Shown here: piece after piece, positions 653 to 24,580 of the stretch
Position numbering within the stretch: position 1 is the stretch's first letter
Layout of the letters: each line of letters starts with the position of its first letter
Source: Pachysolen tannophilus NRRL Y-2460
Taxonomy: Eukaryota
Length of the DNA stretch: 25,245 bases
Assembly: GCA_001661245.1 (NCBI GenBank)
Contig: KV454013.1
Span: 625,981-651,225 of the forward strand
Direction: 5' to 3'
Made by a program: the position numbers and the translations under genes
The notes under the pieces: model-generated
The model's database searches: none
What the model saw: only the letters and a program-made list of their open reading frames with translations
Told to the model about the DNA's origin: nothing

Positions 653-1222
653 TTATAATATATTACAACACGAAGAACTAGAGCTGTCAGTATTGAGCAA
701 TAAACTCATTCTAGCGGCATATTCAAAAACATCATCAACACCTTCTCCATTTAAAGAAGAACATTCAATGTACTTCTTTGCCCCAATTTCTCTAGCAACT
801 TGTTCTCCCCTTTTAAACAGTACAGACCTTTTCCCTTCAACTGTTTCATCATCTCTTAAATCTTTTTTCAAGCCGACCAATAAGACCGGTGTGTTGGGAC
901 AATATTTGGAGACTTCATCAATCCATTTTGTTGCAGCATTTTCAATAGAATCCGGCACATCAATGGCAAATCCAATCAATATCACACTTGCATTTGAATA
1001 AGATAACGGTCTTAATCTCTCGTATTCTTCTTGTCCTGCTGTATCCCATAATGCCAATTCCACGCTTTTCCCATCTACCCTGCATCTAGTGACGTAGTTT
1101 TCAAAAACCGTAGGATGATACTCTGTTGGAAACTCTCCTAGCGTGAAAACGTATAACAATGAAGTTTTACCACATGAGCCATCACCAACTATCACAATTT
1201 TTCTTCTTATTGGATCTGACAT
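653..1222 (-). CDS. RHO2: Rho-family small GTPase Rho2
   Basis: IRRKIVIVGDGSCGKTSLLYVFTLGEFPTEYHPTVFENY is typical of Rho2. Also LWDTAGQEEYERLRPLSY, and a C-terminal CCNIL (CaaL box plus a palmitoylatable Cys). Confidence 0.95.
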   Translation of the reverse strand: MSDPIRRKIVIVGDGSCGKTSLLYVFTLGEFPTEYHPTVFENYVTRCRVDGKSVELALWDTAGQEEYERLRPLSYSNASVILIGFAIDVPDSIENAATKWIDEVSKYCPNTPVLLVGLKKDLRDDETVEGKRSVLFKRGEQVAREIGAKKYIECSSLNGEGVDDVFEYAARMSLLLNTDSSSSSCCNIL

Positions 1223-1868
1223 ATAAGAAAATTTAAACTATCTAAAATCTTAATTATTATACCTGCTGCGTATTATACGAAAATGTTTTTCGTCAGGGAA
1301 TCAAATGTTAAAATTAATAATAGTACAATGGATTCAAATCCAAATGTACACAACAAGCCACAGATCAATTATACTGATCCTAGCAAAACGAACAGAACTG
1401 GAAATAGTTTAATAAACAACAGCTCTATTTAAGTTAATAAAAACACTTTTTATGATGGTCAGATGTTGTATTGATAAAATTTTGTTAACTTTTTTGGTAT
1501 GCACGTAAAAAAAAAAAATGATAAAATGAAAAACGTTTTTTTATCTTATAATCTCTATCTATCTTTGGGCTAAATATAAATATAAATATAAATATAGATT
1601 TAAAACAGTGGGTTTTTCTTTTTTAATAATACTCTAAGGTTAAAAGTATGTGAAAAGAAAAAAAGATCTTACTTAAACTATCTTAATAGAACACTATAAA
1701 AATTTACCAAAAAACAGGTTCATAAGAAGAAATAGATCTTATCTCAATTCTTTTTGCCAACAAAAGGAAAAGGAAAAAGAAAACCAAAAAAAAAAAAAAA
1801 AAAAATTACACCTTTAGATAAAACATAAAGAGGGAAAGCTAAGGAGATTAAGCAAGCCATAACTTATT

Positions 1869-3186
1869 TCACCAAATATTATTTTCCTTGACTCCGGAAT
1901 TGCCAAAGCCGTGATTGGTATTTAGAAACAAGTTTCTCTGTGCAGTACTTCCGTTTAATGGATTTGAAGTTGCATGATTAGTTGTAGAAAATGTATTAAA
2001 ACTATTCGTAGCTGATGACATTAACTTCGTATTGCTGTTGACATTGTTAATGTTATTGTAGTTCAAGCCCACTTTAATATGTGATACAGACCCAAAATCA
2101 TCGTAAATAAATTCAAACCAATAATTTTTGTTCAGAGCTGATTTTCTACTTAAAGCTTTTAAAAATGAATTTAGCGACAAATTTGGATAATTTGGAAGAT
2201 AAGATTGTCTTGTAGTGGAAAATAACATTGATGTTGGAATGATATCATTACTATTACCGTTAAATTTGTTCCCACTGGAAATTCTCAGAAAAGCTTGAAT
2301 TGCAGCAAACTGAATAATATCAACGTCATCCTCGGTTACCTGATGCTCTAACGATGAAATATTAGTTTCCGGTAAAGGATTTATCTGAGAAGCAGCAGGT
2401 ACAGAAGGTACAGAAGGCGCAGAAACACCAAAAGAACTTTGTGACACTGAAGGTGCTGGCAGCTTCCATATAGAGTTCACTATCGAAGCAGAACTATTTT
2501 CATTCTGCTGATGCAGATGCTGCTGTAAAGGAACACTAGTGGAATGAGATGGAGCAGTTGAAGTTATCGAGGGATTACTCCAAATGGAATTGTTACGAAT
2601 TTGTCCACCAGCAACAAATCCTCCAACATTTTCATTCTGAGACGATGCTAGAGGTAACACGTCGTTTGTCCAAATATCTTTTTGACCCCATAAACTGCCA
2701 CTATTATTAAATCCACCTAAAAGTAGATTACTGTTAGAAGAAGATCCAACACTGTTATTGGTTGTAGGGAATCCACTTCCAACCACATTAGTTTCGGGTA
2801 TTGAAGTTGTTGTTCCATTATTTATAAACCGACCAAAACTATTCAACGAATTCGTGTCTATAAATGGAGTAAAAGAAGACAGATTACTGTTATTAGCAGC
2901 CGGGTTCACATTATTGTATAACGGGAATTGCGAATTTAAATTATTACCATTTGCCGTAGTGTTATTTAATGCAATGTCATTCAATGCATTCGGCGGAGAA
3001 CTCCAAGTACTGCTACTAGTATTATTTGTATTTTGAACAATATTTTGTTGAGGACTATTAATATTCGATATCAGTAAGTTCATCAAACCAGGAGGAGGAG
3101 GTGGCGGTGTTGTAAAAGTTTGATGAGACAGTGGGTTTAACTGTTGTTGCTTACTGCTTTCATCGTATAGTATTTGCTGCTGCTGC

Positions 3187-3217
<31 letters not shown>

Positions 3218-5768
3218 GCGGAATCAGAGACAGTAATGAAGTTGAAGATGACAAATTCATCTGTGAGTTCGTGGACATTAATGGAATGCCAGAAAGAGAA
3301 GGCGAAACATTACTAATTTCCTGTTTGTACAAATTTTCTAACAAAGAGTTTGATGACTGTGGATCCAGCAATAAAACATTTTTCATTTCTTGGGCTGAAT
3401 CTAACTTCTGATCTTGTTGTTCTTGTTGCTCTTCTTGATCACGCAGTTTCTTCAATTCTAATTTTCTTTGTATTTCAACTTCTTCTTCTTTTTCTTTCTG
3501 CTCTTTCTGTAATGCTGCCTTCTTACTCTCTTCCTCTTTCTTCTTCTTCTTTTCTTCTCTCTTTAAGCGTTCTTTTTCTTCTTTTGATCTTCTGAGTCTT
3601 TCTAATTCAGCATTTTTCTTTTTTTGTTCTTCTAATTTCTTTTTCCTTTCTTCTTCTCTCTTTTTTCTTTGTTCCTTGGCTTTCTTCTCTTTTTCTTCCT
3701 GTAATTTCCGTTCAAGCTCTGCTTTTTCAATTTCTTTTCTTTTCCGCTCTTCTTCTTTTGCCAATTGTTGAAGTCTTTTTTTCTCCTTAGCCTTTTCCTT
3801 TTGTCTTTGTTTCTTCTCTTCTTTTTCTCTTTTCCTTTCTTCTTCAGCTTCTAATTCATTAAGTAAAGTTTGCGTCCTTTCTTCCGCTACTTTTTCACGA
3901 TATTTTTTCAAAAGACGTTCGTGAAACATTCTTGTTGTGAAGATTTGAATCATTTTACGAGCTTCTTCAAGTCTTTTTTCTTCATCGATGTAGTCCTCTT
4001 CATCTTCATCGTCAAGTTCATCTTCATCGTCTTCATCTAATTCATCATCTTCACCTAACTCATCATCCTCCAACTCATCTATATCTTCTTTATCGTTGTA
4101 GCTCTCTTCAAAAATTTCATTATTTCTTTTCTTATAATCAAAAACATTTTCTGTCAGTGCAGGTAGAGAAGATGATGCTGGTGGATGATGTAGATCAAAT
4201 TCATCATTGATACTCAAGTTTTTAATATCTTGTAATTCTTCAATCTTTGGATGATCTTGTTGCTGTTGTTGAAAGCCATCATTATTCATTCTATTTTCAG
4301 CTAATTTTTCCATCATATCTATAAAACGTTTCCCATCATTTTTCAATAAATCCTCCGCTACTGACATTACGCCATTATTTTCTTCGCCAGGGGAGATACC
4401 GTTTCCAGAGTTTGTAGCCAAATTGAAAATTGAATTCATGAATTCTTTGTTGTCTATAGGAGAGCGGTTGTCAATATTTTTGTTGCTTTCATTATTGTCG
4501 TTATCATTTTTGGTAATCTTGTGGTTGAGTTCTTGATGAAAATCTTCATTATCATGATGCTCACCGTTATGCAAATGCGAATGTGTATGCTGATGTTGGG
4601 ATGGAGCGGCACCACTTGCGTCAGTAAATTCTTGAGTAAAGTCACTCGAATGCTCATGATGCGAGTCGTTATTCCCAGTAAGATGAGAGTGTGCGTGTTG
4701 GGGTTGATAATGTTGACAATGCTCTGCATGTTCTTCTTCATTATCATCGTAGCTTTCTTCTTCTTCGTCATCATCTTCATATTCATCTTCTTCGTATGAA
4801 TCTTCATGCTGATACAGTTGTTGTTGATGCTGTGGTTGCAGTTGCTTGCGGCCATGACGGTAACTGCTATGGTGATGGTGATGGTGGTGGTCATGATCAT
4901 GATCATGATCATGGTTATGGTTATGGTTATGGTTACACTCATCATAATCACCTTCATCTTCTTCAAACTCGTCTAAATTCAATTGGAATGACTCTTGGAA
5001 ATCAGTTTGTTGTAATTGAGCATAATAACTATCATATAAATTTTCCAACTCTTTTTCGATGGCATTTTTTTTTCTTCCACATACAGTACAATTACATACA
5101 ATTTTCTGTTGTTCTTTAATAGCTTTCAAGATAGTATCTTTCTCTATATTCACCAATTGTTTCTTTTCTCCGTTTGGTAGATTTATCCAAAAATTTTGGA
5201 GTTTTTCCTGTTCTTCGAGATTATTGGACTCCCAAATATTCTCATCGTTAGTAGCCGAGTGACGTTTCTGCCGCTGTTGCTGTTGTTGTTGTTGTTGTTG
5301 TTGTTGCTGCTGCTGTTGATGCTGTTGATGCTGTTGTTGTTGATGTTGATGTTGCTGTGACAGTTGCAGTGACGGCGGTAGAGTCTGTTTCTTTTTCTTC
5401 TTTGCATCCATCCCAGTAACAACAACTCCTCCATCTGGACCACCTGTAATGACTCTAGAAGTTGGGTACTCAGAATTCGAATCGTTAAGTTGAACTTGCA
5501 GTTGCCTAGTATTAACACCATCACCACCATTCAACGAGCCCTTCTTCTTCTTCTTCTTCTTTTTCTTATTACCCACAACACTGGGTCTCTCTATACTTGC
5601 TCCAGTTCCTCCATTTGCTCCATTTGCTCTGTTTCCTCTGGTTCCGTCACCAACATGGTTTTCGTAATCAAAATGAACATCATTACCAGCTATAAATGAG
5701 GAAGAAGCCGAAGCTGAGCTTCCAGGCGTATGATTTATGTCTATTGACTTCTGGAATTTCGCCATCAT
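1869..5768 (-). CDS. NST1: Stress-response / P-body-associated protein Nst1
   Basis: Conserved Nst1 blocks IWE…EQEKLQNFW…LVNIEKDTIL…CNCTVCGRKK, SVAEDLLKNDGKRFIDMMEKLAE and RLEEARKMIQI…YREKVAEER, followed by a long K/E coiled coil. First ATG is at 5768 (the track starts at GTG 5771). Adjacent to RHO2, as in S. cerevisiae. Confidence 0.92.
3175..3218 (-). repeat. CAA/CAG trinucleotide repeat encoding polyQ in NST1
   Basis: (tgc/tgt)n run on the + strand; polyQ in the translation. Confidence 0.9.
4870..4935 (-). repeat. Hexamer/trimer repeats encoding the HNHNHNHDHDHDHDHHHHHHH tract in NST1
   Basis: (ggt/gat), (catgat)n and (atggtt)n arrays on the + strand. Confidence 0.85.
5275..5357 (-). repeat. 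CAA/CAG/CAT repeat encoding a Q/H-rich tract in NST1
   Basis: (tgt/tgc/tga)n run on the + strand. Confidence 0.9.
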
Positions 5769-5875
5769 CACTTTCCCCAGAAACTGCTTTTAAAACCCAC
5801 TTCCTAATAATCAAAGTAATAAATCAAAACAAAATTGAAATTAGTCAACTAATAATATTATTTAATAAAATTATA

Positions 5876-6696: not shown

Positions 6697-8685
6697 ATGA
6701 GTTTAGATAGAGTTGATGACTTTGTTGAGCCACCAAGAGATAAACATGATTTTGATTTAGAATATTTGGCGCCTAACCCACGTCAGATCTTAAGAATTTC
6801 AATGAATCTTAAGTACTTGATTGATAAAATTATACCTATAGAATATCCTATTTCTGAAATTCTTGCTCCTAAATCAAGAATTTTGAATGGGAAAGTTATA
6901 AGACAAACTTATGAAGCTGCCGGTGGTGTTGGCAATGGAAAACATGGAACATCTTCTCAAAAATATAGAGCCGCATTAGTTTTTTGTTTGTTGAAAACTT
7001 GTGAATGGTATTGGGAATTAAGAACTAATGAATTAAGCGATTACGAATTATATACAGCAAGAGCATTTGCTGCACAACAATTGGCTAAGATAATCATTGA
7101 AAATGAAAGGGATGAAAGATATTTGTTTATATCAATGTTATGCCAACGTTACTCGATCAATTCTAATAACAAAGATTTACCACCAAAGAATGCTTTAGAA
7201 GCAGCTGTTGATATGCATAGTACTATAGTTATAAGTTCATCTGGTTATCAAAGATGTATAAAATGGTTATGGAGAGGTTATATAATTCAATCTTCTTCAC
7301 ATCCTTCTAAATATATCATGTATAATGCATCAGGAAATGCAAATTTTAGTGTACATTTTAATCCAGATAGAATCAAGACACCATTTTATCAAAATACTTT
7401 AGAAATCATTTTTTCATTGATTTATTTATTTTTATACACAATTATAATCAATATTGATACTGAAAATCGAATCTTAAATTTTTTTGAAGTTTCTTTTTAT
7501 ATATTAACTTTTGGTTACGTTTTTGATGAAATTGGGAAACTTTATTTGGTTGGTAAGAATTATGCAACTTTTTGGAATGTTTTCAATGATATAATGTATC
7601 TGATAGTTATAGCTTCGATAGTTTTAAGAATCATAGCATTGACCACCGATAAGAATTCAACTTCAATTCATTATGATCAAATCTCTTTTAGAATTTTATC
7701 AATGCTGGCACCTTTTGTATGGTCAAGATTATTGTTATACCTTGATACACAACAATTCATTGGTGCAATGTTGGTAGTTATTAAACATATGATGAAAGAA
7801 AGTGCAATATTCTTTTTCTTGTTATTATTCGTATTAGTTGGATTCTTGCAAGGATTTTTGGGTCTAGATCAGGCAGATGGTAAAAGAGATGCTACAAGTT
7901 TAATCTTTTCAGTATTATTTAGAACTGTTATTGGAGGTCCTAATTTTAATGCATTTGGTGAATTTGCATTCCCATATACAGATATACTTTATTATTTTTT
8001 CAGTTTTATGGTACTTGTCGTTTTATTGAATGTCTTAGTTGCTTTATATTCAACAGCATATTCAAATGTTGTTAGTAATGCCACTGATGAATATTTGGCA
8101 CTTGTTGCTCAAAAGACTTTGCGTTATATTCGATCCCCTGATGAAAACGTTTATGTGCCACCTTTAAATTTGATTGAAATATTATTTGTTCAACTTCCTT
8201 TCCAATGTTGGATGAAACGTTCTGATTTCAGAAATTTAAATAGAATTGTTATGACTATACTTTATTCTCCATTTTTATTTTTTTCAGCTTTACAGGAATT
8301 GAAAGATGCAAGAAGAATTCGGTATAACAGACTGAAAAATTATGCAGATGATGCAAATGAAATTGATACTCCTTGGTCTCTAACTGATGGGTTTGAAGAG
8401 ACAGAGGGCTCAGATCTGGATATCCAAAGTCATGATGATAGAATAAACGAAGAATTAAGGGTCCAGAAGAATGCTGAAATAGAAGATCCAGAATTTCAAC
8501 CAAATAGAAACAAATGGATTAGAGAAGTTAGAAAATTATCTCAACCAGTTGCTAAAGGGTTCGAGACTGGTATTGGATGGGAGTGCTACGATATTTACCG
8601 TAAAGTAGATGAATTGACTGAATTAGTCAAGATTGTGGTAAAGGAGAACCAAGATTTGAAAAAGAAGAAAGTACTGGCTACTTAG
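6697..8685 (+). CDS. YVC1: Vacuolar TRP cation channel Yvc1/TRPY1
   Basis: Motifs NLKYLIDK, AVDMHSTIVISSSGYQRC, APFVWSRLLLYL, KHMMKES.FFFLL, LRYIRSPDENVYVPPLNLIE and DDANEIDTPW; multiple transmembrane helices. Confidence 0.95.
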   Translation: MSLDRVDDFVEPPRDKHDFDLEYLAPNPRQILRISMNLKYLIDKIIPIEYPISEILAPKSRILNGKVIRQTYEAAGGVGNGKHGTSSQKYRAALVFCLLKTCEWYWELRTNELSDYELYTARAFAAQQLAKIIIENERDERYLFISMLCQRYSINSNNKDLPPKNALEAAVDMHSTIVISSSGYQRCIKWLWRGYIIQSSSHPSKYIMYNASGNANFSVHFNPDRIKTPFYQNTLEIIFSLIYLFLYTIIINIDTENRILNFFEVSFYILTFGYVFDEIGKLYLVGKNYATFWNVFNDIMYLIVIASIVLRIIALTTDKNSTSIHYDQISFRILSMLAPFVWSRLLLYLDTQQFIGAMLVVIKHMMKESAIFFFLLLFVLVGFLQGFLGLDQADGKRDATSLIFSVLFRTVIGGPNFNAFGEFAFPYTDILYYFFSFMVLVVLLNVLVALYSTAYSNVVSNATDEYLALVAQKTLRYIRSPDENVYVPPLNLIEILFVQLPFQCWMKRSDFRNLNRIVMTILYSPFLFFSALQELKDARRIRYNRLKNYADDANEIDTPWSLTDGFEETEGSDLDIQSHDDRINEELRVQKNAEIEDPEFQPNRNKWIREVRKLSQPVAKGFETGIGWECYDIYRKVDELTELVKIVVKENQDLKKKKVLAT

Positions 8686-9048: not shown

Positions 9049-10317
9049 ATGCTGCAACAAACTGCTGATGATATAGAAGAATATAATGCATTGACATCAG
9101 TGTTGTAAGTTTTATACATAGGAGAAGGTTTAATTAACAATTGAAAACCCACTAACTTTTTATTAATTAGATCATCTTTCTATGAGTATGGGAACTGGGC
9201 AAGACGTACATTTTTAATTCCAAGAAGGCTTAAATGGGAATCTTTATCAAGGGAAGAGCACGAATTATTACCGTGGTTTGAAGATCATTTAAATTATTTG
9301 GAAAATTGTATTTTACAAAACGAAATATTTACCAAGAATCTAGCTACAACTATTGCTGGCAATTGGCAAGTTTCTACTGATCCAACCAGTTGGCATAATT
9401 GTAAGGTGAGTGATTTAGATAAAGTGAAATCTGTTTTAAACCAATTTGTGAGAGAATGGTCTGAAGAAGGAATTGAAGAAAGAGATGTTAGTTTTAATAA
9501 AATTTTAAAAGAGTGTGTACTGCTTTATCCTGATTTACAACAGAGACCAAATTTAAAAGTATTAGTTCCAGGTGCTGGGTTAGGAAGGTTAGTTTTTGAG
9601 TTTGTTAAATTGGGATTTCAAACTCAAGGGAACGAATTTTCATATCATATGCTTCTAGCATCGAATTTTATATTGAATCATTCGTATGTTGCACATCATC
9701 ATAACATATATCCACATATTCATAAATTTTCGAATCATGCCAAGCGGATCAATCAGATAAGACCAGTTTCTATACCAGATAGTGATCCGCATGATATTAA
9801 TAGAATGTCTAATGAAGGCAGTGGAATTCAATATGATGAATTAATGTCCATGTGTGCTGGATCTTTTATTGATCTATATGGACCATCTAATTTAAATATT
9901 TCTGAAACTTATTCAGGTGATAAGTCGGCACTGGATTTTAGGAAATTAAATGAAAATAATTTTCAAATAATTGCTACATGTTTTTTTCTTGATACAGCGA
10001 CTAATATCATTGATTATTTGAAAACAATTCATCACTCTTTAGACCCTCAAGGATATTGGATCAATTTTGGTCCCTTTTTATGGCATTTTGAAGATGATGA
10101 TTCTATAACCAATGAAGTAAACAAGGATAATCAAATGAAACCTACACCATTAAAAGGATTAGAATTGACAAGAGAAGACTTGATTGAATTGGTGAAGAAA
10201 TGTGGATTCAAGTTTTTAAAATATGAAAATAATATAGAAACAACTTATGCAAGTTCAAAAGATTCTTTAGGAGGGTATAGATATGAATGCGATTATTGGC
10301 TATGTCAGAAAGTATGA
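9049..10317 (+). CDS. Carnosine N-methyltransferase (N2227/CARNMT1; YNL092W ortholog), join(9049..9104,9171..10317), 400 aa
   Basis: Motifs QFVREWSEEG, VLVPGAGLGRL, QGNEFSYHM, TCFFLDTA and WINFGPFLWH. Splicing out 9105-9170 restores the N-terminus M-CTG-QQTADDIEEYNALTSVLSSFYEY… in frame with the track ORF, which otherwise starts at TTG. Confidence 0.9.
9105..9170 (+). other. Spliceosomal intron, 66 nt, phase 2
   Basis: GTAAGT 9105-9110, branch site CACTAAC 9150-9156, TAG 9168-9170. Removal gives TT+A = Leu and a continuous ORF. Confidence 0.9.
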
Positions 10318-11889: not shown

Positions 11890-13674
11890 CTACAATTTCG
11901 GAGCAATGTAACCACCTTTTTCGTTAGTTGCTTTGGTGTTCATCTCTAATCTGCCTTCATCATTAGGAGTTTCTCTATCTTTTCCAAAAAATACCACAAT
12001 CACTGTGAGATCATCTCTATAACGTCTAGATAATGGTGATGGGATACTAGAGAGCATTTCACAATGTTCCTTGGAACCACCATTAGATAAGGCATTTCTT
12101 ATTAAATGAGTTGAAACGTTATTATCTTCCAAAATATAACTAAAATCTTGATTTGTATTTGTTCTTCTAAAAGCTTGTTTTGAAGATTCTGGAGTTGCTG
12201 TTAAATCTACAACTTTTGGTAATTTCTTATCTTCTCCTGTGAAATATGATAATTTAAAATTTTGAACAAAACTAGAACTAGTATTATTAGTTTGAATAAT
12301 ATTTTCTCTATTATTTGTTTCAAAAAATTTATTTTTTTCTGTCCATCTAACAACTAATCCAACAATTTCTTCATTTGTTAACATCTCATATAAACCATCA
12401 GAAGCCATTACTAAAAATTGATTTTTTGATTCATCAATCTTAGTTGTTGTAATAACTGGTTCTGCTGTAACATAAGGTGGACTTTCTAAATTTGGTGGTG
12501 ATTTTCTACCAAAAAATTTATTATAAACTTTCAGTTGAATATCCAGCGACCATTTATATCTTGCATCTCCAAAAGATCTACTTGGTTCTAATGATCCCAA
12601 GATTCTTCCATTTCTAATAGCATTTGGTTCATTTGGATGTTCTGATTTGATTCTTTCAACTTCTTCTGGGTTAGAACCAGTTTGATCAATACTTAATTGA
12701 TTAACTGTCCATTGTGAACCATCTTCATTTAATGATCCTAACAAAGCCCTAGAGTCTCCTGCAACTGCAACTTTTAAAATTTTTGAATGTGTATCATAAA
12801 AACTTAATAATCCACAAGAACCACTTAATGCAGGCATTAATAAATTCAGAACTGATGTTTTATCAATTGTAGAATTAAATAATTTTTCAATAGATTTATT
12901 AACAATTTCATCATCCAATTTTAAAAACCCGGATTTGATAGCATCATCTATAGTTTCAGAACTAGGAACAATTCTTAACTTTCTATCTGGATTGAATTTA
13001 TAAATTTCATCTAATTGATTAATAACATGATCAATTAATTCATCTTTTAATTTGGCAGATGTATTCCATCCAGCATGACCATCAAATACTCCCCAAAACA
13101 TCCAATCAGTATTCACCTCTTGATTGGTCTTATCATCTATAATAGGAACTTGAACAATTTTTTCACTTTTAGCATCTTCAATAGGATTATTACTTGGTAA
13201 TTGAGCCATATCATACCTAGTAACACCTTTCCCACGATTAACCATATAACTTTCTTCTAAAATTAATCCAGAGAAAAAAACTGCCGCTGCAGCAATATTT
13301 TTAACCAGATTTTTCATCTTTTTATTCGTCTCTTCTTCACCAGAGTTTGTCTTGTATTTATTTCTATCAGCAGCCGTTGATAAATTTCTTTGAAGTAGCT
13401 GTGGTACCGACTGAACAGTGGAATTAGTACTTGCACTTGTACTAGTACTTGTACTATTACTATTAGTATTACTAGGTTTCAAAGAAGATGCTGAACCTAT
13501 TGCTACCACTGTATTTGAACCTTGACGAGATGAAGCAGCATATAACCTATTTAAAACTAAAACACTGCAATCACTTTTAGCTTTCAATCTTAAACGTATT
13601 AAACTCCCAATAAAACTTCTTGCTGAATAGAAATTTTTAATAGCTGAATATTTCACTGGAGATTCTAATCCCAT
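11890..13674 (-). CDS. PTC5: PP2C-type pyruvate dehydrogenase phosphatase Ptc5 with mitochondrial presequence and C-terminal PTS1-like PKL
   Basis: Motifs RYDMAQLPSNNPIED, FWGVFDGHAG, PALSGSC, GDSRA, LEPSRSFGDARYK, PPYVTAEP, MASDGLYEML and SRRYRDDLTV. R/S-rich N-terminus; ends in -APKL. Confidence 0.93.
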   Translation of the reverse strand: MGLESPVKYSAIKNFYSARSFIGSLIRLRLKAKSDCSVLVLNRLYAASSRQGSNTVVAIGSASSLKPSNTNSNSTSTSTSASTNSTVQSVPQLLQRNLSTAADRNKYKTNSGEEETNKKMKNLVKNIAAAAVFFSGLILEESYMVNRGKGVTRYDMAQLPSNNPIEDAKSEKIVQVPIIDDKTNQEVNTDWMFWGVFDGHAGWNTSAKLKDELIDHVINQLDEIYKFNPDRKLRIVPSSETIDDAIKSGFLKLDDEIVNKSIEKLFNSTIDKTSVLNLLMPALSGSCGLLSFYDTHSKILKVAVAGDSRALLGSLNEDGSQWTVNQLSIDQTGSNPEEVERIKSEHPNEPNAIRNGRILGSLEPSRSFGDARYKWSLDIQLKVYNKFFGRKSPPNLESPPYVTAEPVITTTKIDESKNQFLVMASDGLYEMLTNEEIVGLVVRWTEKNKFFETNNRENIIQTNNTSSSFVQNFKLSYFTGEDKKLPKVVDLTATPESSKQAFRRTNTNQDFSYILEDNNVSTHLIRNALSNGGSKEHCEMLSSIPSPLSRRYRDDLTVIVVFFGKDRETPNDEGRLEMNTKATNEKGGYIAPKL

Positions 13675-14122: not shown

Positions 14123-15226
14123 ATGCCTCCAAAGAAGGGAAAGCAAGTGGATAATTCAAAGGCCAAGCTTAAAAAGGCTCAAAAGTCGGCTGAAGATAAG
14201 ACGTTTGGATTGAAGAATAAAAATAAATCAAAGAAGGTTCAACAATTTGTTAATCAGGTTCAAGGACAAGTTAGTGAGGCTCAAAGGAAAAAAGAAGATG
14301 CTGCTGCGAAAAAGGCTTTGGCTGAGAAGAAGGCAGCAGAGGCTGCGAAGTTGGAGGCTGCAAAGTTATTCCAACCAGTTTTAGTTCAAAAAGTTCCATT
14401 TGGTGTTGATCCTAAATCTATATTATGTATTTATGTGAAACAAAAAATGACATGTCCAAAAGGTGCAAAGAAGTGTAAGTTTTCTCATGATATCAATGTT
14501 GAGAGGAAAAGTGAGAAGATCGATTTATATTCTGATGGAAGAGAACAAAAGGAAGTTGATACGATGGAAAATTGGGATGAAGCTAAATTAAGATCGGTCA
14601 TTTTATCAAAACATGGTAACCCAAAGACAACAACGGATAAAATTTGTAAACATTTCATAGAAGCTGTTGAAAATGGTAAGTATGGTTGGCTTTGGATTTG
14701 TCCAAATGGTGGGAATGAATGTAAATATAGACATTCTTTACCGCCAGGATTTGTATTAAAGACAAAAGAACAGAAAAGATTAGAAAAATTAGCGTTGGAA
14801 CAACAACCAAAGATTACTTTAGAAGATTTTATAGAAACTGAAAGAGGAAAATTATCAAGAGATAAATTGACTCCAATTACATTAGAAAGTTTTGCAAAAT
14901 GGAAAAAAACTCATAATCAAAGATTACAATCAGAGAAGGAAAAACAACAACAATTATCAAATGGTAAGAAAGTATTAACCGGAAGGGAATTTGTCATACA
15001 AAGATTTGCCGATAAATTCTATAAAGAAGAAGAAAACGAAAATGATAGAGCATTTGATCTTTCTACGTTTAAAAGGCAAACAGATGATGAAGAAAATGGG
15101 GAAGTTAAAGATTATGGAGATGGTTCTACAGCTTTTGCTCAGTCGCAATTTTCAAATTCTACCACAGAAAAGACAGAAAAACCACAGGAAATTTTACAAA
15201 AAGGGATTGAAACATTAGCTTTGTAG
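14123..15226 (+). CDS. TMA46: Translation machinery-associated protein Tma46 (DFRP1/ZC3H15; two CCCH fingers)
   Basis: Motifs MPPKK, DKTFGLKNKNKSKKVQ, QKVPFGVDPKS, CKHFIEAVENGKYGW.W.CPNGG..CKYRHSLPPGFVLK and ITLEDFIETER. Confidence 0.95.
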   Translation: MPPKKGKQVDNSKAKLKKAQKSAEDKTFGLKNKNKSKKVQQFVNQVQGQVSEAQRKKEDAAAKKALAEKKAAEAAKLEAAKLFQPVLVQKVPFGVDPKSILCIYVKQKMTCPKGAKKCKFSHDINVERKSEKIDLYSDGREQKEVDTMENWDEAKLRSVILSKHGNPKTTTDKICKHFIEAVENGKYGWLWICPNGGNECKYRHSLPPGFVLKTKEQKRLEKLALEQQPKITLEDFIETERGKLSRDKLTPITLESFAKWKKTHNQRLQSEKEKQQQLSNGKKVLTGREFVIQRFADKFYKEEENENDRAFDLSTFKRQTDDEENGEVKDYGDGSTAFAQSQFSNSTTEKTEKPQEILQKGIETLAL

Positions 15227-15299: not shown

Positions 15300-15372
15300 T
15301 ATATATATATATATATATATATTAATTATTTAATTTTTTTTNTTTTTTTTTTTTTTTATTTTTTATTTTTTA
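15300..15372. repeat. (TA)n plus poly-T tract between convergent TMA46 and TDP1 (ambiguous base N at 15342)
   Basis: Read directly from the sequence; probable 3'-end formation region. Confidence 0.75.
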
Positions 15373-15561: not shown

Positions 15562-17328
15562 TTACAAGTCAAACTTACACCATGGCTTATCACTTTCATC
15601 ATATTTTTGAGGTGGTAACTTGAATGGCAACCTAATAGGAACCAATTTTTCGTCTGCACCGTCTAATCGTCTCCCTACTGTTTCAAGTTTATTTGTATCA
15701 AAAACAGGAACAAATTTAGCGTGTTCATCAAAAGTTTTGGGATCTAACAAAACTCCAACTTCCCAATTATTACATCTCAATGACCTAGAATCTGAGTTAC
15801 CTGATTTAGATTTTGCTACGGGATAACCCCAAGCCGATTTACTCAAATTCATAGATCCGATGAATATCCACTCTAAAGTTGCAAAATCGTCCTTTGAAGT
15901 GCAATATATTTTAGAATGGTTATTCACAAAAAATTTGTTTGATTCCAGCATACTCCTTTTATAAAAAAAATCTTTCAATAACTCATCATATTGAGATTTC
16001 CCCCTTTTGTTAACATTATCGTAAATCAAACAACCAGCACCCATTAACCCTCGCTGAGCCATAAATAATTCAGACCGTGTTGGAAATAAAATAATAGGCT
16101 CAATTTTTGTCAATAAATTATCAAGCTCATCTCTACCAGGAGCTAGTGGGAAATCTTGTCCCAAAATAAGAGGACACAAGATATGTGTAAAAATATTTGA
16201 AGAACCTTTAATTCCGTACCTAAATGGTCCTGCAATTGTAGAAACTTGAGATAATATTTTTAAATGTTGATCTTCTTTTAAAGTTGGAAATAATTGTTGA
16301 TTTTTAAGATGTTCGTGAAATTTCAAGTATCCAAATTCTCCATGTGAAACTCCTGGTGTAGATGATACAAACGATGCTTTAACACTGCTAAATGAATATT
16401 TTTGAATTTCTTTGACTAAATTTTTCATTTCTTGTCGCTTATATTGTAATAAATAATCACAGAGATCTTTCTTGAAAGGCTCTTGTATCTTATTTTTACT
16501 ATTTGGTTGTAATAATGGCAACAAGTCTGACTTCCAAAAGCAACCACCTAATGCTCCATATTCAGCCAATGTAAAATTCGATGTAGAAATAAATACCTGT
16601 AAATGTCCTGTTGTATGAAAATTAATAACCATTTTAGAATGATGACAAGACCACTCAGTTATTAAACTTTTAACGTCATGGTACACAATGTGTTGACTAT
16701 CATGTATTTCATTATAAACATTTTGAGCTATGATATGAGTCTCAACGTCGGACGATTTGAAACTATTAACCACCAAATCCACATCTAGTTCAAAAGAGAA
16801 AACATAAGTCTTGTATAGAGATTTAGAATCAAAAATTGAACTAATAGAAGTACTATTTGGAGGATGTATGGCAGGAGTATTAAATATTATTATTGGCGAT
16901 TCTTCTGGTATTCTCGTTTCTGTTTTCCTTGATTCAATTCCCAAACTATGAGGTTTTCTTTCATTTTTCACCTGTGACACATTCTCATCATGAGTTTCTT
17001 CAAGTGACTCTGTTTCTGAATATTCGGTATCATCATCATCATCATCATTTATGATCACAACATTATCACTACATTCACTTTTGATATTCGTTTCATTCGT
17101 GTGATCAATTCGTATCTTTCTCTTCTTTGCTAAAGATCTTACCACTTCACCATCTTCATCTGATTGACTATCTATCATTATTGGATCATCATGTTGATTT
17201 AAGAAATTTTCTTTGCCAATATTTGTTCTCTCGCTCTCTTCCACCTCACCTTTTGACTTCAACTTCTCATACTTATTAACCCAATAACTAGCCACAACAT
17301 TCTGGACATCAGACCTTTGTCGGTTCAT
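15562..17328 (-). CDS. TDP1: Tyrosyl-DNA phosphodiesterase 1 (PLD superfamily)
   Basis: Two HxK…N motifs, CHHSKM…ISTSN and NHSKIY…WIFIGSMNLSKSAWG. Also NWEVGVL and the terminal PIRLPFKLPPQKYDESDKPW. Confidence 0.92.
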   Translation of the reverse strand: MNRQRSDVQNVVASYWVNKYEKLKSKGEVEESERTNIGKENFLNQHDDPIMIDSQSDEDGEVVRSLAKKRKIRIDHTNETNIKSECSDNVVIINDDDDDDTEYSETESLEETHDENVSQVKNERKPHSLGIESRKTETRIPEESPIIIFNTPAIHPPNSTSISSIFDSKSLYKTYVFSFELDVDLVVNSFKSSDVETHIIAQNVYNEIHDSQHIVYHDVKSLITEWSCHHSKMVINFHTTGHLQVFISTSNFTLAEYGALGGCFWKSDLLPLLQPNSKNKIQEPFKKDLCDYLLQYKRQEMKNLVKEIQKYSFSSVKASFVSSTPGVSHGEFGYLKFHEHLKNQQLFPTLKEDQHLKILSQVSTIAGPFRYGIKGSSNIFTHILCPLILGQDFPLAPGRDELDNLLTKIEPIILFPTRSELFMAQRGLMGAGCLIYDNVNKRGKSQYDELLKDFFYKRSMLESNKFFVNNHSKIYCTSKDDFATLEWIFIGSMNLSKSAWGYPVAKSKSGNSDSRSLRCNNWEVGVLLDPKTFDEHAKFVPVFDTNKLETVGRRLDGADEKLVPIRLPFKLPPQKYDESDKPWCKFDL

Positions 17329-17573: not shown

Positions 17574-19712
17574 TTACTTGAGGTATTCCGAAACTTTCTT
17601 CAAACACTCATCCTTTATATCGTCGACGTCAAACCAGAATTTGAGGTCGACATCATTCGGTAAATCTTTTACAACCCTCATTATTCTTTCTCTCCATAAT
17701 TCTGCTTTTCTGTCATACTCGATTGTTGTCATATAGTTATCTTGATCGCTTGGCATGACAATAGAGTTATCAAGACTATTTGAAGTAATTTGGGAATAGC
17801 CCAAGGGATCACGATCACGAACTCTTCTTGGTGGCAACGTTGGAGATGAAGATACTGCTAAATGAGACGAGGAAGCAGAAAAAGGAGATGTTGGTCTCGA
17901 ACTGTCTAAAAATGTCGAGCGAGCCGGTAAGGGTGGTCTTGTTTCTTCGATGCTATATCCTTCAAAAGTTCTTGTAAGTTGTCTTGATATTTCAGTGGGC
18001 GAAGGTGAGCCATCAATATTAACAAAATGTTCGACGGAATCAAAGGTATTCTCATGTTCCGACTTACTCGTTTTGTTTCCCCTTAAAGAACTTGGTTTGT
18101 TTGGAATCATTGGGGAATATTTTTTGCTTTGTCGCGGAAGAGGAGCAGAACGGGGTAAAGGAGGAGGAGGTGGTGGTGGATGAGAAAATTCCAAAAGTGA
18201 AGTCAAAGGTGCGCTATGATTTTGGTTGATTGAACTTTTATGGTTATCTTTGATTTCTGAATCTAAATCAATTAAGTCTGAATGAATTTCACTTTTCGTT
18301 GACAGATCTGCTGATAGCGATGAAGCTTCTGTATTTTGAAATCGATCTTTATCTCTATTTGTTAATGCTTTCAAAATTTCATTGTAAACTTTATTATCAT
18401 CTAAATCAGAAAGCGAATGTGGAACAATTCTAATATAAATTGCCAATACTTGTTTTGGGTGATCTTTTGCTATGCTCAAATAAGTTTCCAAATCTTGTTC
18501 TCCTGAATCACCAATCATAATAAACTTTCTATTTGAAAAATCACTAACTATCTTGGAAATTGCTGGTCTCTTACGCTGAGATGACAGTTGCATTAAACTT
18601 GACAATAAATTACCTGTATATTGTTTCAAATGTATAGATCCAATAGGAAGACCAATAGTTTCTATAAATTGATAAATAGGATAATATAATTGCCATGGAG
18701 AATTTGAAACGTAATGAAAAGCACAATTTTTCTTTGCCAATGATGAATACCAAGATGCTATTTTCGGGACTTCACAATCTTTGAATTCTTTTACAAATAC
18801 GTTTCTAAATAAATCTCTCTTATCACCTACAACACCTGTAACTCTCACAGTATCATCAACATCACTAATTATAGATATTCCTTCATTTGGGACAATGTTA
18901 ACTTCGTTAAAACTAAATATACTTTCGTTTTCCACTGCTACAGCTTGGACAACTGAAGGTTCATAATCAGTGACAATTGAGCATTCAAAAGTACCATTGA
19001 CGTCTGCGTTAACATAATTCGAGATCAATTTATCTAAACCTAGTTTCTTTTCGGAACCTATTGTAATTTTTAACTTTGCATAAGATATAGATCTCGATAA
19101 AAATCCTGCTAATCTTTCTTTTAAAATATTTTCTGAATTAGACGCTACCGATGAAGCCGAAGCTGTTGAAACACTAGATGGGCTAGTTTCATCTTTCCTT
19201 AAAGAGGCATATGGTGATTTAGGCTCTGGTTCTGGTTCCAAACTACTTAATAAATCAGGATTATTTACCTTATCACTCAATTGTCCCTGTAATTCTTCGA
19301 CAGCTTCAGGTGGAGCTCCAGTGACTTTTGTCATTTGTCTTGCTAACGACAAAATTAACCTATTTTTCCTTGTCATTGCACCATTACAATAAATCCAACC
19401 TTTAACATCAGTGACATATTTTTTCTCTTTCAGGTTATATCGAGTGTAAGTATTATATAACGATAATTTAGAATTTGCTGGGATTCCTTCTAATTCATCT
19501 GAAATAGTGAATTTTTGAGTTGCAAAATTTGTAATTGACGATGCTATAGTGGGAATATATGTATCTTTAGTTGATTTGACCATACCCATCAATTTCGATC
19601 TCCTTGAAATATTACCGCTATTTTGATTGTTATTGCCACTAATGTTACCATTATCACCATATTGAGGAGGAGCGCTTTCAGGTCTAAAGTCATACTCAGA
19701 TTCTGGATGCAT
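17574..19712 (-). CDS. APP1: Phosphatidate phosphatase App1 (actin patch protein 1), from first ATG 19712; frame remains open upstream to 20012
   Basis: IISDVDDT (DxDxT catalytic motif), FHYVSNSPWQLY, GSIHLKQY, FIMIGDSGEQDLETY and AIYIR; proline-rich PxLPxR motifs. Confidence 0.92.
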   Translation of the reverse strand: MHPESEYDFRPESAPPQYGDNGNISGNNNQNSGNISRRSKLMGMVKSTKDTYIPTIASSITNFATQKFTISDELEGIPANSKLSLYNTYTRYNLKEKKYVTDVKGWIYCNGAMTRKNRLILSLARQMTKVTGAPPEAVEELQGQLSDKVNNPDLLSSLEPEPEPKSPYASLRKDETSPSSVSTASASSVASNSENILKERLAGFLSRSISYAKLKITIGSEKKLGLDKLISNYVNADVNGTFECSIVTDYEPSVVQAVAVENESIFSFNEVNIVPNEGISIISDVDDTVRVTGVVGDKRDLFRNVFVKEFKDCEVPKIASWYSSLAKKNCAFHYVSNSPWQLYYPIYQFIETIGLPIGSIHLKQYTGNLLSSLMQLSSQRKRPAISKIVSDFSNRKFIMIGDSGEQDLETYLSIAKDHPKQVLAIYIRIVPHSLSDLDDNKVYNEILKALTNRDKDRFQNTEASSLSADLSTKSEIHSDLIDLDSEIKDNHKSSINQNHSAPLTSLLEFSHPPPPPPPLPRSAPLPRQSKKYSPMIPNKPSSLRGNKTSKSEHENTFDSVEHFVNIDGSPSPTEISRQLTRTFEGYSIEETRPPLPARSTFLDSSRPTSPFSASSSHLAVSSSPTLPPRRVRDRDPLGYSQITSNSLDNSIVMPSDQDNYMTTIEYDRKAELWRERIMRVVKDLPNDVDLKFWFDVDDIKDECLKKVSEYLK

Positions 19713-20498
19713 CCTAGAGTACCTACCAGGCGTAAAATCGCTTACAAAACTAGAATTTCTCAATAAAAGATTTTTAAAAAGATATGATGAATCTCTCTTA
19801 TTCTTATTCAGGAAAAGCAACGATTGCAAAAAATTCCTCCTATAAATCAATAACTGACTATTCTTTTGCTTATTAAGATGATAATATTTTTGAATGAATA
19901 AATTTCGATGTCTAATAAAACTCGTATACTTGAAAAACACCTGTTTGGCGTCTTCAACTTTGGAAAGAGCCCTTGCTAATTTGATCAAAGTCAGTTGCCT
20001 CACTTTTGAAACCTATTATACAACACTCAAAATCCAAAAACGGAAATAATTATATAAAGCTTTCACAAAACTTCAAATACTTCCATTCACTTCTAGCAAA
20101 ACCAAAAAAAAAAAAAAAACACAATTCTATTCTTAAACAACTATATCAATAATAAATATCTATTATTACTATAACGCATGCCTACAAATTTAATTGCAGG
20201 TTTAACTGAGAGATGATCTATATCTCACGGGGCGGTCAAAAGTTCTCCTCCGAATGCACGACTAAAAAATGGGCGGGTTCGAAGACCACCAAGATCATTA
20301 AGATCATTACGATCATTACGATGACAATAGTTCTAGATGGAATGGTTTCCAGCCAGTATAGAGTGGCTACGTTTGCTATAATGTAGGTGTTAAAATGCTT
20401 TTGGTTCCCATTTTTTCATTAATGCCAGTTTGAAATGCCTAAATAAAAATATTACACACGTATATATATATTTTCCCATTTTTTTTTTTTTTTTTTTT

Positions 20499-22253
20499 TC
20501 AATAGCCCAAGTTGACCTTTATCGCATAAGTTACAGAGAAAGGTAATGTGATGAATAATATGGAGTACTGTGCAATCATGTAGAGTGATAGACAGTCCAT
20601 TTGGATACAGGTTTCTGCACTGGGGTCGGCATATGTTGCGGTGAGGTAAATTTGAATTGTAGCTGATGGTAACGACCATTCCAACAACATGATAAATGCA
20701 GCTAATTTATCATCACTGATCCAGCCTGCACTTTGTAATCTATGAACCCACAAGACACCTATTATAGGCATTATACATAGCCTGAAACTTGTGAGTACTA
20801 GCACACATTTCCAGAAACCAGGAGGAACAGAATTAATTTTCAATCTTGCACCTGTGGAACCTAATAGTAATAAACCAATGGGTACAGCAGCTTGACCTAT
20901 ATAGCTAAAATAATCCATAAGAAATGATAGAGGAGGTTCATCATCGGGGGCATTGGGCATCGAAACTGATGTTGAGACAAACAATGCTTTAACCCATGGG
21001 ATCATTGCTATAGTGACAGATAGAATTAATGCAATAGCACTTGGTTTTAAAAAATTTCTCAAGAAAAATACTAGCCATTGAAGTTTATATTTTTTAACAA
21101 ATGAAATATTTTTACCACTTTCTTCAACATCTTTTCTTGATACTTGTTCAGTTAAAATAGACATTGTAGTAGTTAATGCATGAATATCAGAATTATGACT
21201 ATGAAAAGATTGAACTCTTGAATACTCTCTAACCAAATCATGTGTAGTGTTAGTGCTATTGGCATTTGTGCTTAAAGTTGAAGCATAACTACTAACCGAT
21301 CTCGAACGGTTTCTTGTACTAGATATCGATGCTCTTGTATTGACCCTTCCTTCTGTATCTACTCCTGCTGCTGATCCTGGTTTTGATCCGGCCTTTGATC
21401 CAGCCCTAGACCTTGAGTTTAATATAGGCCCAAAATCATTTCCAGTCAGATTACTGGATCTATGAGACTGGAAAGGTCTTACTTGAAATGTTTCATTATC
21501 ATTTTCAAATTCTTCATCAGAACTATTTATTGATATGGTATCTGTAGGGGTGATAACATTTTCCTCATTACTATTGTTAATACCATCATTAATCAACACG
21601 TCATGGTTCGATGGAGAATGTGTTTCTTCAACTTCTTTTTCAGATTTCGGTCCTTCTTCACTCGGTCCATCTTCACTTGATCCATCATCACCTTCTGGTC
21701 TTACAGAATCCTCAATTTTAGAATCATCATCTTTATCTTTAAAATCATATTCAATTATCTGAAACAATCCTAAATTGAATTGTACAAAGATATAAGTTGC
21801 CAAACAAATACATATATATGAAACACCTTTATCTCCTTCATCTGTAGTGAATACAACCCCACCAGATAAAGTTTGAATATAAGCTATGGGCAAATCCGAG
21901 ACATTTGGCAAAGTATTTCCAGCAATATAACCACCTCTCCAATGTCTTGGTACAGGTAAAAAAAAACTAGTAAGTAAGGCAAAGAAAAACCCAGTACCAT
22001 ACATCACCACAGCATTTAAAACAATTATCCCAATAATCTTAATATCAGAATCGGAAATATTCGTTATAATCTCATCTAAAATCAAACATGGCATCAATAC
22101 CAAGAGAACAATATTTGACAACCCTCTAGTAATCTCCACAGACAAAAAATTCTTCTTCGCCAAGAAAAACCCAGTGAATATAATCAAATATACCTTAACT
22201 ATAGGTTTAACCGCAGAATATATTGCAGAACCTAACGAAATTTTATCAGACAT
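20499..22253 (-). CDS. ECM3: Auxin-efflux-carrier (Mem_trans) family transporter, ECM3/YNL095C ortholog
   Basis: ISLGSAIYSAVKPIVKVY, PNVSDLPIAYIQ, IPWVKALF, PNAPDDEPPLSFLMD and QMDCL; two transmembrane bundles flanking a long hydrophilic loop. Confidence 0.88.
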   Translation of the reverse strand: MSDKISLGSAIYSAVKPIVKVYLIIFTGFFLAKKNFLSVEITRGLSNIVLLVLMPCLILDEIITNISDSDIKIIGIIVLNAVVMYGTGFFFALLTSFFLPVPRHWRGGYIAGNTLPNVSDLPIAYIQTLSGGVVFTTDEGDKGVSYICICLATYIFVQFNLGLFQIIEYDFKDKDDDSKIEDSVRPEGDDGSSEDGPSEEGPKSEKEVEETHSPSNHDVLINDGINNSNEENVITPTDTISINSSDEEFENDNETFQVRPFQSHRSSNLTGNDFGPILNSRSRAGSKAGSKPGSAAGVDTEGRVNTRASISSTRNRSRSVSSYASTLSTNANSTNTTHDLVREYSRVQSFHSHNSDIHALTTTMSILTEQVSRKDVEESGKNISFVKKYKLQWLVFFLRNFLKPSAIALILSVTIAMIPWVKALFVSTSVSMPNAPDDEPPLSFLMDYFSYIGQAAVPIGLLLLGSTGARLKINSVPPGFWKCVLVLTSFRLCIMPIIGVLWVHRLQSAGWISDDKLAAFIMLLEWSLPSATIQIYLTATYADPSAETCIQMDCLSLYMIAQYSILFITLPFSVTYAIKVNLGY

Positions 22254-22669
22254 TACCTTTCAATCACTAAAAACATTTGATCAGAAATTAAAATCCTCTT
22301 TTGCAAAATAATTAAAACAACATCTAATGAAATATCAAAACCTAAGAAGAAAAAACAAAAAAACTACACTCTAAAACAAGCTTATTAAGCCTTCTTCCTT
22401 CTGACTCTAGCTTCTAGTATATTAATCGTAACCATTCCCCTTGTTTATATAACTAATTAAAACATCAACTTATCACCCAAAAAAAAATAATAGTAGTGTA
22501 CAATAGATTAGCTGGTGTTTACCGAAACACAGATAGAAAAGAAGCTCATTTCACAGAAATCTTTAAAGATACAATAATTAGAGGTTTTATAACGAGCCTG
22601 AGTTACAAGGTGACTAGGATTGACTATAGAAGGTTAGAAGGATAGGTAGATTGTTTTGAGGTTTCTAGG

Positions 22670-24580
22670 ATGTCGGTAGAAGTTATTAGTATAGGCAATG
22701 AATTGAAGGATGGTTATAAGCCTACTAATCAATGGGTTAAAAATGGAATCAATTGGTTATCTGATATTGAACTGTTTTATAGAGCTAGAGCTTCGATAGA
22801 GAAAGAGTATTCTTCTAAGTTGCAAAGCTTGTGTGGTGAATATTTCAAGAAGAAGGCCAAAAGTTCTATAAATTTGAGTGTTGGTGATGAACCAGTTATA
22901 ACGCCTGGTTCATTAGAGTGTGCAAGTTTAGTTGCATGGACAGAAATTTTATCTCAAACAGAGACAATTTCTAAAGCACATGGCAAATTATCACTGGATT
23001 TTGAAAAAAATGTAGCTGGTGAATTATTGAATCTTCAGCAGAAATATGAGGGAATAAGAACTAAATTTGAAGGATTTAATAATGATTTGATTAAAAAAAG
23101 AGATGGTTATTATAATGAATTATCAAAAGCTAAGAAAGAATATGATTCTTTATGTCAATCTGTAGAAAATCAAAGAGTTAAATTAGAGAAATCTTCAAAT
23201 ACTGAAAAGACTCAGAAGAAATTGAAAGATAAGGAAATTGATATGAATATTGGTAAAAATAATTATTTGATAAAGATAAATATTGGAAATAGATTAAAAG
23301 ATAAATATTATTATCAAGATTTACCTGAAGTATTGGATGGTTTACAAGATTTAAACGAATCAAGGGTTACTCGATTAAATCAAATTTGGCTTGCAGCTTC
23401 ATCCCTTGAAAAGAAAACATTGGAGAATTGTATTTCATATTTAAACTCTGCCGATAATGTTGTTAATAAAAATGAATGTACTTTAGATACTAATATGTTT
23501 ATTAAGCATAATCTTAACTCTCAATGGAATGAACCACAAGATTTTTATTATATTCCTTCGAGTATATGGCATGATGATGATAAAATGATTACAGATACAA
23601 ATGAATTAATCGATTTGAAAAAACAATTAAATAATTCTATTTCACTTTATGAAAATTTGAAAACAAAATGTGAAGAAGAAAAAAATACTTTAGGAGAAAT
23701 TTCTATTAATAAGAAAAATATAAAATCATCAAAGAAAATGTTATCAAAAGAAGAAATTTTCAATTATGATGATTTGTTGTTGAAATATTTATATCAATTG
23801 GGAATATTTACTAATGATGATACTAGAAAAGTTATTGCAGAAGTTGAAATTGAAACAATCCAAAATGCTGCAGGAGATAAAGTGATGAACCTTGATATTC
23901 CAGTAGAAACGAAAAAAAAATCAAGGTTAGGATTTTTGAAAATAGGTGGAAGTAGCCATCATCATCATCATCATAATTATACAACAGAATCTACCAACAA
24001 TGGTGGTGGCGGTGAGGGTGGTGATAGCGTTGGAAGTTTGACTAGATCCTCAACTATTTCCAACCATACAACTTCCACGAAGCACACAGCAGGAACTTCA
24101 AGCAGAATCTTTGGAGCATTCCGTAACAGAGCCCAAAGTGTTTCTTCAACGGTAACAAATAATTCTTTATCTCTGAGACCTCAAGGTAAAGCTTTATACC
24201 TGTACGATGCGCAAGGTAACGATGAAGTCTCGGTACAACTTGGTGAAACTGTCACTATCTTAGAGTCAGATGATGGCTCCGGATGGACAATGGTCCAAAC
24301 CCCTTCCAACGAACAAGGTTTGGTACCAACTTCTTACCTCGAGATACAGTCTCAAAATACGAAAAAAGTAGGACCAAAAGTTGCTCCAAAAAAAGGTGCC
24401 AAAAAAATTAAATATTGTGAAGCATTATACGATTACCAAGCCCAAGGTAATGATGAGCTAACTTTAAGTGTTGGTGATAAAATCTCAATCATAACCGAAG
24501 ATGATGGAAGTGGTTGGACAGAGGGAGAAATCGATGGAGATACTGGGTTATTCCCAACAGGTTACGTTAAATTCTTGTAA
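22670..24580 (+). CDS. BZZ1: F-BAR / tandem-SH3 endocytic protein Bzz1
   Basis: SIGNELKD, LSVGDEPVITPGSLECASLVAW, KDKYYYQDLPEVLD and WHDD; two SH3 domains (ALYxY…DDGSGW…GLVPTSY and ALYDY…DDGSGW…GLFPTGYV). Confidence 0.95.
   Translation: MSVEVISIGNELKDGYKPTNQWVKNGINWLSDIELFYRARASIEKEYSSKLQSLCGEYFKKKAKSSINLSVGDEPVITPGSLECASLVAWTEILSQTETISKAHGKLSLDFEKNVAGELLNLQQKYEGIRTKFEGFNNDLIKKRDGYYNELSKAKKEYDSLCQSVENQRVKLEKSSNTEKTQKKLKDKEIDMNIGKNNYLIKINIGNRLKDKYYYQDLPEVLDGLQDLNESRVTRLNQIWLAASSLEKKTLENCISYLNSADNVVNKNECTLDTNMFIKHNLNSQWNEPQDFYYIPSSIWHDDDKMITDTNELIDLKKQLNNSISLYENLKTKCEEEKNTLGEISINKKNIKSSKKMLSKEEIFNYDDLLLKYLYQLGIFTNDDTRKVIAEVEIETIQNAAGDKVMNLDIPVETKKKSRLGFLKIGGSSHHHHHHNYTTESTNNGGGGEGGDSVGSLTRSSTISNHTTSTKHTAGTSSRIFGAFRNRAQSVSSTVTNNSLSLRPQGKALYLYDAQGNDEVSVQLGETVTILESDDGSGWTMVQTPSNEQGLVPTSYLEIQSQNTKKVGPKVAPKKGAKKIKYCEALYDYQAQGNDELTLSVGDKISIITEDDGSGWTEGEIDGDTGLFPTGYVKFL

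Follow-up and report, generated by a model that had tools for sequence, protein, structure and literature searches.

The codon CUG, leucine in the standard genetic code, was shown in 2016 to be read as alanine in the budding yeast Pachysolen tannophilus (PMC4937558), a code now listed as NCBI translation table 26 and later extended to Nakazawaea and Peterozyma (PMC5951914; PMC11182611). Established in Pachysolen and its relatives since that year, the CUG-Ala code by now defines an order, the Alaninales, which is described as diagnosed partly by this code (PMC4937558; PMC11182611). According to PMC4937558, the Pachysolen tRNA with the anticodon CAG is an anticodon-mutated alanine tRNA that carries G3:U70 and A73 and has no long variable arm, and liquid chromatography with tandem mass spectrometry (LC-MS/MS) of P. 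tannophilus found alanine at 97.2% of 907 fully supported CUG positions. Here, a stretch of 25,245 bases (the window, meaning the whole stretch that was analysed) is examined with respect to the meaning of its in-frame CTG codons. The window is almost certainly nuclear DNA from the CUG-Ala clade of budding yeasts (order Alaninales), most probably from P. tannophilus itself; in this clade, CUG is read as alanine according to table 26. An earlier, sequence-only reading of the window had proposed alanine rather than leucine or serine and had recognised the code as a known one; it is borne out on both counts, the former by column statistics, public protein records, a tree of the channel protein Yvc1 and the published tRNA and LC-MS/MS data. 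Other papers cite Riley et al. 2016 for what is said to be an independent report of the same code.

In-frame CTG accounts for 39 of the 6259 codons in all gene models of the window (0.62%) and is found in nine of its eleven genes. Its meaning was scored in alignments of four encoded proteins, namely the phosphatase Ptc5, the vacuolar channel Yvc1, Bzz1 and the phosphatidate phosphatase App1. The homolog sets consisted of the best 120 of 2068 (Ptc5), 1179 (Yvc1) and 191 (Bzz1) matches and, from a representative search, the best 150 of 3693 matches for App1. Matches of at least 1000 residues (one for Yvc1, 13 for App1) were left out and the window's own records were dropped, so that 119 (Ptc5), 118 (Yvc1), 119 (Bzz1) and 136 (App1) homologs were aligned. 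CTG codons of the query were masked as X to keep a provisional leucine from biasing the alignment. The score of a codon is the sum of amino-acid log-odds, with position-based sequence weights, over columns of at least 70% occupancy. The four genes contain 16 CTG columns, 12 of which pass this cut-off (Ptc5 123, Bzz1 502, App1 94 and App1 470 are excluded). The main score therefore covers 12 of the 39 CTG codons, and the 23 codons of Nst1, Rho2, Tdp1, the methyltransferase and the Mem_trans gene lie outside the deep alignments. As a control, 57 of the 60 other sense codons recovered their standard meaning, the misses being CAC (n=1), CGG (n=1) and ACC (n=6 columns).

Summed over the 12 columns, CTG scores +7.8 bits for alanine, -7.5 bits for serine and -25.6 bits for leucine, and the other five leucine codons score leucine at +8.7 to +249.5 bits in the same alignments. 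Alanine is the commonest residue in five of the CTG columns, leucine and serine in none; for TTA, TTG, CTT, CTC and CTA, leucine ranks first in 144 of 195 columns. The mean frequencies in CTG columns are 0.26 for alanine, 0.08 for serine and 0.02 for leucine, compared with a mean leucine frequency of 0.41-0.65 in the columns of CTT, TTG and TTA. When 12 columns were resampled 10,000 times, no draw of true leucine columns had a leucine score as low as the observed one. An alanine score of at least 7.8 was reached by 95% of the true-alanine draws, by 0.54% of the true-serine draws and by none of the draws from all non-CTG columns, and the alanine-minus-serine margin of 15.3 bits was matched by none of the 10,000 true-serine draws. 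Alanine was the best amino acid in 8682 of 10,000 column bootstraps. It remained best after removal of any single gene and at occupancy cut-offs of 0, 0.3, 0.7 and 0.95, and the addition of the four low-occupancy columns left the ranking unchanged. The alignment of orthologs and tabulation of residues that had been suggested as a check comes out with alanine in the lead and with none of the 12 scored CTG columns dominated by leucine or serine. The window statistics reject leucine and also favour alanine over serine, and the pattern is far from what chance would give.

Alanine had been expected from family knowledge at four individual sites, and it is the commonest residue of the homologs at each of them. 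Ptc5 codon 276 (12849) faces alanine in 118 of 119 homologs and serine in one, and Yvc1 codon 337 (7705) faces alanine in 100 of 118 and serine in one; the Saccharomyces cerevisiae Yvc1 (PDB 6whg) likewise has alanine at 337. The majority is smaller at Ptc5 377 (12546; alanine in 70 of 119, lysine in 37), and at Bzz1 511 (24200) alanine is found in 48 of 119 homologs and proline in 33. Yvc1 302 (7600), which had been named as a possible counter-example where leucine would also fit, does not hold up as such, the column being one of small residues (alanine 27, glycine 23, serine 22, threonine 20, valine 9 and leucine 3 of 118). Among the codons outside the deep alignments, methyltransferase 136 and 273 are variable positions with threonine/lysine and leucine/glycine, respectively, in two PDB pairs. 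Rho2 135 lies in a variable loop and faces threonine in all five printed PDB alignments with Rho1, and Tdp1 461 lies in a poorly aligned part with valine or methionine nearby in the S. cerevisiae Tdp1. These sites of the methyltransferase, Rho2 and Tdp1 all belong to variable loops and are uninformative as to the meaning of CTG. The PDB alignment of the C-terminal part of Bzz1 spans the second SH3 domain only and does not reach codon 511.

A column that would have suggested leucine, App1 470, was rejected as alignment bias. In the unmasked MAFFT alignment it shows leucine in 39 of 74 filled positions (62 gaps of 136). With CTG masked, its occupancy is 57 of 136 and leucine is not among the 12 residues listed as most frequent, all of which occur two or more times. 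A CTG left as leucine thus produced a spurious leucine column, and reassigned codons should therefore be masked before aligning.

Among the matches listed for Ptc5, Yvc1 and Bzz1, the best named ones come from Ogataea, Kuraishia, Komagataella, Candida arabinofermentans, Pichia and Babjeviella, with about 52-65% identity. None of the matches in these three lists bears the name Pachysolen. Since Pachysolen proteins are publicly available, they would be expected high in the lists if the window came from a sister genus, and the window's own records, which were set aside, are therefore probably the Pachysolen ones. In a single-gene tree of Yvc1, the window pairs with its closest relative (Shimodaira-Hasegawa-like approximate likelihood ratio test, SH-aLRT, 99), and this pair joins Komagataella, Kuraishia, Ogataea and Brettanomyces in a group supported at 95%. 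Separate from the window are the CUG-Ser1 (Candida-type) yeasts, Ascoidea, Lachancea and Wickerhamomyces/Cyberlindnera. Orders were assigned to the species of this tree according to the usual taxonomy. In the tree of this one gene, the window stands next to the Pichiaceae (Leu2 clade) and apart from both the Ser1 and the Ser2 clade, which fits the CUG-Ala clade. Pachysolen has been placed as sister to Pichiaceae/Ogataea (PMC4986446), and a split of Ala and Leu2 within the Pichiaceae is reported in PMC5951914.

Public protein records of the window's own genes carry alanine at all 14 CTG sites that were checked: P0001 (Ptc5, four sites), P0121 (Yvc1, five sites) and P0241 (Bzz1, four sites) have it at every CTG, and the fused model P0361 has it at the CTG of the Mem_trans gene. 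All four records depart from a standard-code translation at CTG only, and the public annotation already applies table 26 to the source genome. P0361 (1385 residues) joins the Mem_trans carrier and App1 (window 17574-22253, minus strand), omits the last residues of the carrier and includes about 100 residues read from spacer sequence upstream of the App1 ATG. This fusion is probably an annotation artefact, because the two parts are separate Pfam families and separate open reading frames.

A number of points weigh against alanine. The sample is small, with 12 scorable codons, and the alanine signal is carried mainly by the columns of Ptc5 276 and 377, Yvc1 337 and Bzz1 511; without Ptc5, alanine scores +1.3 and serine -1.3 bits, a margin of 2.6 bits. 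Other residues prevail elsewhere: App1 376 is proline in 106 of 136 homologs (serine in 22), Bzz1 35 is glutamate in 56 of 119 (serine in 20), Bzz1 109 is a mixed basic and polar column (serine 17, leucine 8 of 119), Yvc1 546 is aromatic (phenylalanine 48, tyrosine 38 of 118; methionine in S. cerevisiae), and Yvc1 574 depends on the alignment (glycine 75 unmasked, tryptophan 55 masked). Leucine is found opposite Yvc1 302 in the S. cerevisiae protein, opposite methyltransferase codon 273 in the S. cerevisiae carnosine methyltransferase and opposite Ptc5 276 in mammalian PDP1 (3mq3, 2pnq), which has isoleucine opposite Ptc5 377. The alanine of the public records is annotation and not independent evidence. 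Finally, an earlier column-based study by the group of PMC4937558 had assigned the Pachysolen CUG to serine (PMC4986446). The discordant columns weaken the alanine signal without reversing it, since leucine is the commonest residue among the yeast homologs in none of them. As a small column sample can confuse alanine with serine, the final call rests on the window signal combined with the tRNA and peptide data from the literature.

Were CUG serine instead (table 12 of Candida and Debaryomyces, or the code of Ascoidea and Saccharomycopsis), the alanine signal would be a small-sample effect of serine/alanine interchange. Serine is the second-best amino acid overall and is frequent at Bzz1 35, Bzz1 109, App1 376 and Yvc1 302, and both the narrow margin without Ptc5 and the earlier column-based placement of Pachysolen can be read in this sense. 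It is, however, the commonest residue in no CTG column, occurs in a single homolog each at Ptc5 276 and Yvc1 337, and yields no draw with the full margin of 15.3 bits; the window lies outside both serine clades in the Yvc1 tree, the public records use alanine, and so do the Pachysolen peptides (PMC4937558). A serine code is thus very improbable. The chance that the standard code applies, with CTG as leucine and merely located at variable positions, is smaller still and practically negligible. The leucine and isoleucine of PDP1, the leucine of the S. cerevisiae Yvc1 at 302 and the hydrophobic column at Yvc1 546 could be taken in its support, but the leucine score, the resampling, the commonest residues and the mean frequencies of CTG all differ from those of the other leucine codons, and on these column statistics the standard code is already refuted at the level of the window. 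An ambiguous or stochastic decoding, with alanine mixed with leucine or serine, also has very little probability. Stochastic decoding of CUG as serine and leucine has reportedly been observed in Ascoidea asiatica. In the window, conservation is lower at CTG than at GCN columns (mean alanine 0.26 vs 0.40-0.43), and hydrophobic residues would be tolerated at a few sites. Lower conservation is, however, expected of codons that arose anew after a reassignment, and CTG occupies Ptc5 276 and the near-invariant Yvc1 337, where an admixture of leucine would be costly. In the mass spectrometry of Pachysolen reported in PMC4937558, the ambiguity of CUG did not exceed that of AUG.

The closest relative of the window (protein P0002; 58-63% identity over three genes) is known from read assemblies only. 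P0002 has leucine at Ptc5 residue 282 (window about 12829-12831, minus strand), where all 118 other yeast homologs have alanine. Leucine at an invariant alanine position hints that the relative is another CUG-Ala yeast whose protein was predicted with the standard code. It is very unlikely, taking the three variants jointly, that the window stems from a CUG-Ala yeast that is poorly studied or not yet described, that the closest relative is a further CUG-Ala yeast mistranslated by public pipelines, or that a residual dual decoding as alanine and leucine persists (Yvc1 302, 546); the published proteomics speak against the last of these (PMC4937558). If true, either of the first two would slightly widen the known spread of the code.

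For CUG as alanine, the preferred reading, PMC4937558 proposes a route by loss of the CUG tRNA, decay of CUG codons and capture via an anticodon-blind synthetase. In the CUG-Ala clade, the ancestral leucine tRNA for CUG would have been lost, and an alanine tRNA with its anticodon mutated to CAG would have captured the codon. Alanyl-tRNA synthetase recognises its tRNA by the acceptor stem (G3:U70, A73) rather than by the anticodon; the tRNA-CAG would therefore still be charged with alanine and CUG would mean alanine. The old CUG-Leu codons would have vanished and today's CTG codons would be new in origin; because they arose anew, they would be located where alanine or a small residue is usual or where there is no constraint, and never at a conserved leucine. 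The tRNA mechanism and the peptide proof are taken from the literature, and the positional signature, the placement and the public translations from this analysis.

The window is AT-rich (G+C 28-35%), and the identities of its eleven budding-yeast genes are supported by Pfam matches. The genes are listed below in the order of the window, with open reading frame abbreviated as ORF; splice models are predicted.

653..1222, minus strand: Rho2-like GTPase gene (ORF, Pfam Ras match); one CTG, codon 135 at 818-820
1869..5768, minus strand: Nst1-like gene, 1299 amino acids (ORF, Pfam); 17 in-frame CTG
6697..8685, plus strand: gene of the Yvc1 (TRPY1) vacuolar channel (ORF, Pfam); five CTG, codons 302 (7600), 337 (7705), 546 (8332), 574 (8416) and 660 (8674)
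Exon 1 9049-9104 and exon 2 9171-10317, plus strand: carnosine N-methyltransferase-family gene (Pfam CARME match, predicted splicing); three CTG, codons 2 (9052), 136 (9520) and 273 (9931)
9105-9170, plus strand: predicted intron of the methyltransferase gene (GTAAGT ... ACTAAC ... AG)
Exon 1 11304-11421 and exon 2 10633-11201, minus strand: Vps21/Ypt-like Rab gene (Pfam Ras match, predicted splicing); no CTG
11202-11303, minus strand: predicted intron of the Vps21 gene (GTAAGT and ACTAAC, long T run)
11890..13674, minus strand: gene of a Ptc5-like mitochondrial PP2C phosphatase (ORF, Pfam); four CTG, codons 123 (13308), 276 (12849), 377 (12546) and 381 (12534)
14123..15226, plus strand: Tma46 gene (ORF, Pfam); no CTG
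15562..17328, minus strand: Tdp1 (tyrosyl-DNA phosphodiesterase) gene (ORF, Pfam); one CTG, codon 461 at 15946-15948
17574..19712, minus strand: App1 phosphatidate phosphatase gene (ORF, Pfam); three CTG, codons 94 (19433), 376 (18587) and 470 (18305)
20499..22253, minus strand: Mem_trans (auxin-efflux-carrier family) gene (ORF, Pfam); one CTG, codon 269 at 21447-21449, in a serine-rich loop
22670..24580, plus strand: Bzz1 gene with F-BAR and two SH3 domains (ORF, Pfam); four CTG, codons 35 (22772), 109 (22994), 502 (24173) and 511 (24200)

The sequence-only reading had named ten CTG codons. All ten are in frame in the ORF check, with coordinates and contexts as claimed (codon 2 of the methyltransferase via the splice model), and VPS21 (spliced from two exons) and TMA46 are indeed free of in-frame CTG. 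As a list of sites it was correct in what it named and incomplete in its coverage, which amounts to 10 of 39. It lacked 17 codons of Nst1, three of Yvc1, two from each of App1, Bzz1 and the methyltransferase, and a single one from each of Ptc5, Tdp1 and the Mem_trans gene. Nst1 alone holds 17 of the 39 CTG codons of the window (1.3% of its codons, vs 0.44% across the other ten genes). They are mostly located within glutamine-rich low-complexity tracts; the protein contains long poly-Gln, poly-Lys and His/Asn/Asp repeats.

Both short introns, those of the methyltransferase and Vps21 splice models, carry the canonical yeast signals GTAAGT and ACTAAC. A single N is found at window position 15342, in the spacer between Tma46 and Tdp1. 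ARAGORN found no tRNA gene in the 25-kb window, and no Rfam family matched it. The stretch is contained in five sequencing runs, among which no RNA run is listed.

The CUG-Ala code in this window is real, was read correctly before and is already known; nothing about it is scientifically new. Its consequence is a practical one, for annotation. A translation with the standard or the bacterial code mistranslates nine of the eleven proteins of the window; 39 residues have to change from leucine to alanine, and the affected residues include the alanine of Ptc5 that is kept in 118 of 119 homologs and the near-invariant alanine of Yvc1. Table 26 should be used for any downstream reading of the genome, and one window of 25 kb is enough to recognise the code.

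Compared with the described systems, the window agrees with the published genome of P. tannophilus in both CUG frequency and the share of genes affected: PMC4937558 gives 16,824 CUG codons in 5288 genes, with 80% of the genes affected, next to 0.62% of codons and nine of eleven genes here. It is like the table 26 code of Pachysolen, Nakazawaea and Peterozyma in the avoidance of leucine columns, in the preference for columns of alanine or small residues, in its placement and in the alanine of its translations. No difference from this code was found, with the window known from its positional signature and the tRNA and peptide traits known from the literature. The CUG-Ser1 code (table 12, Serinales) is similar in that CUG leaves leucine by capture via an anticodon-blind synthetase and CTG lies off conserved leucine columns. 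It differs in that the CTG columns of the window favour alanine by 15.3 bits and the Yvc1 tree does not place the window within the Serinales. The CUG-Ser2 and stochastic codes of Ascoidea and Saccharomycopsis are described as another independent reassignment of CUG in budding yeasts (PMC5951914), but involve another amino acid and another clade, and in the Yvc1 tree Ascoidea rubescens and the window lie on separate branches.

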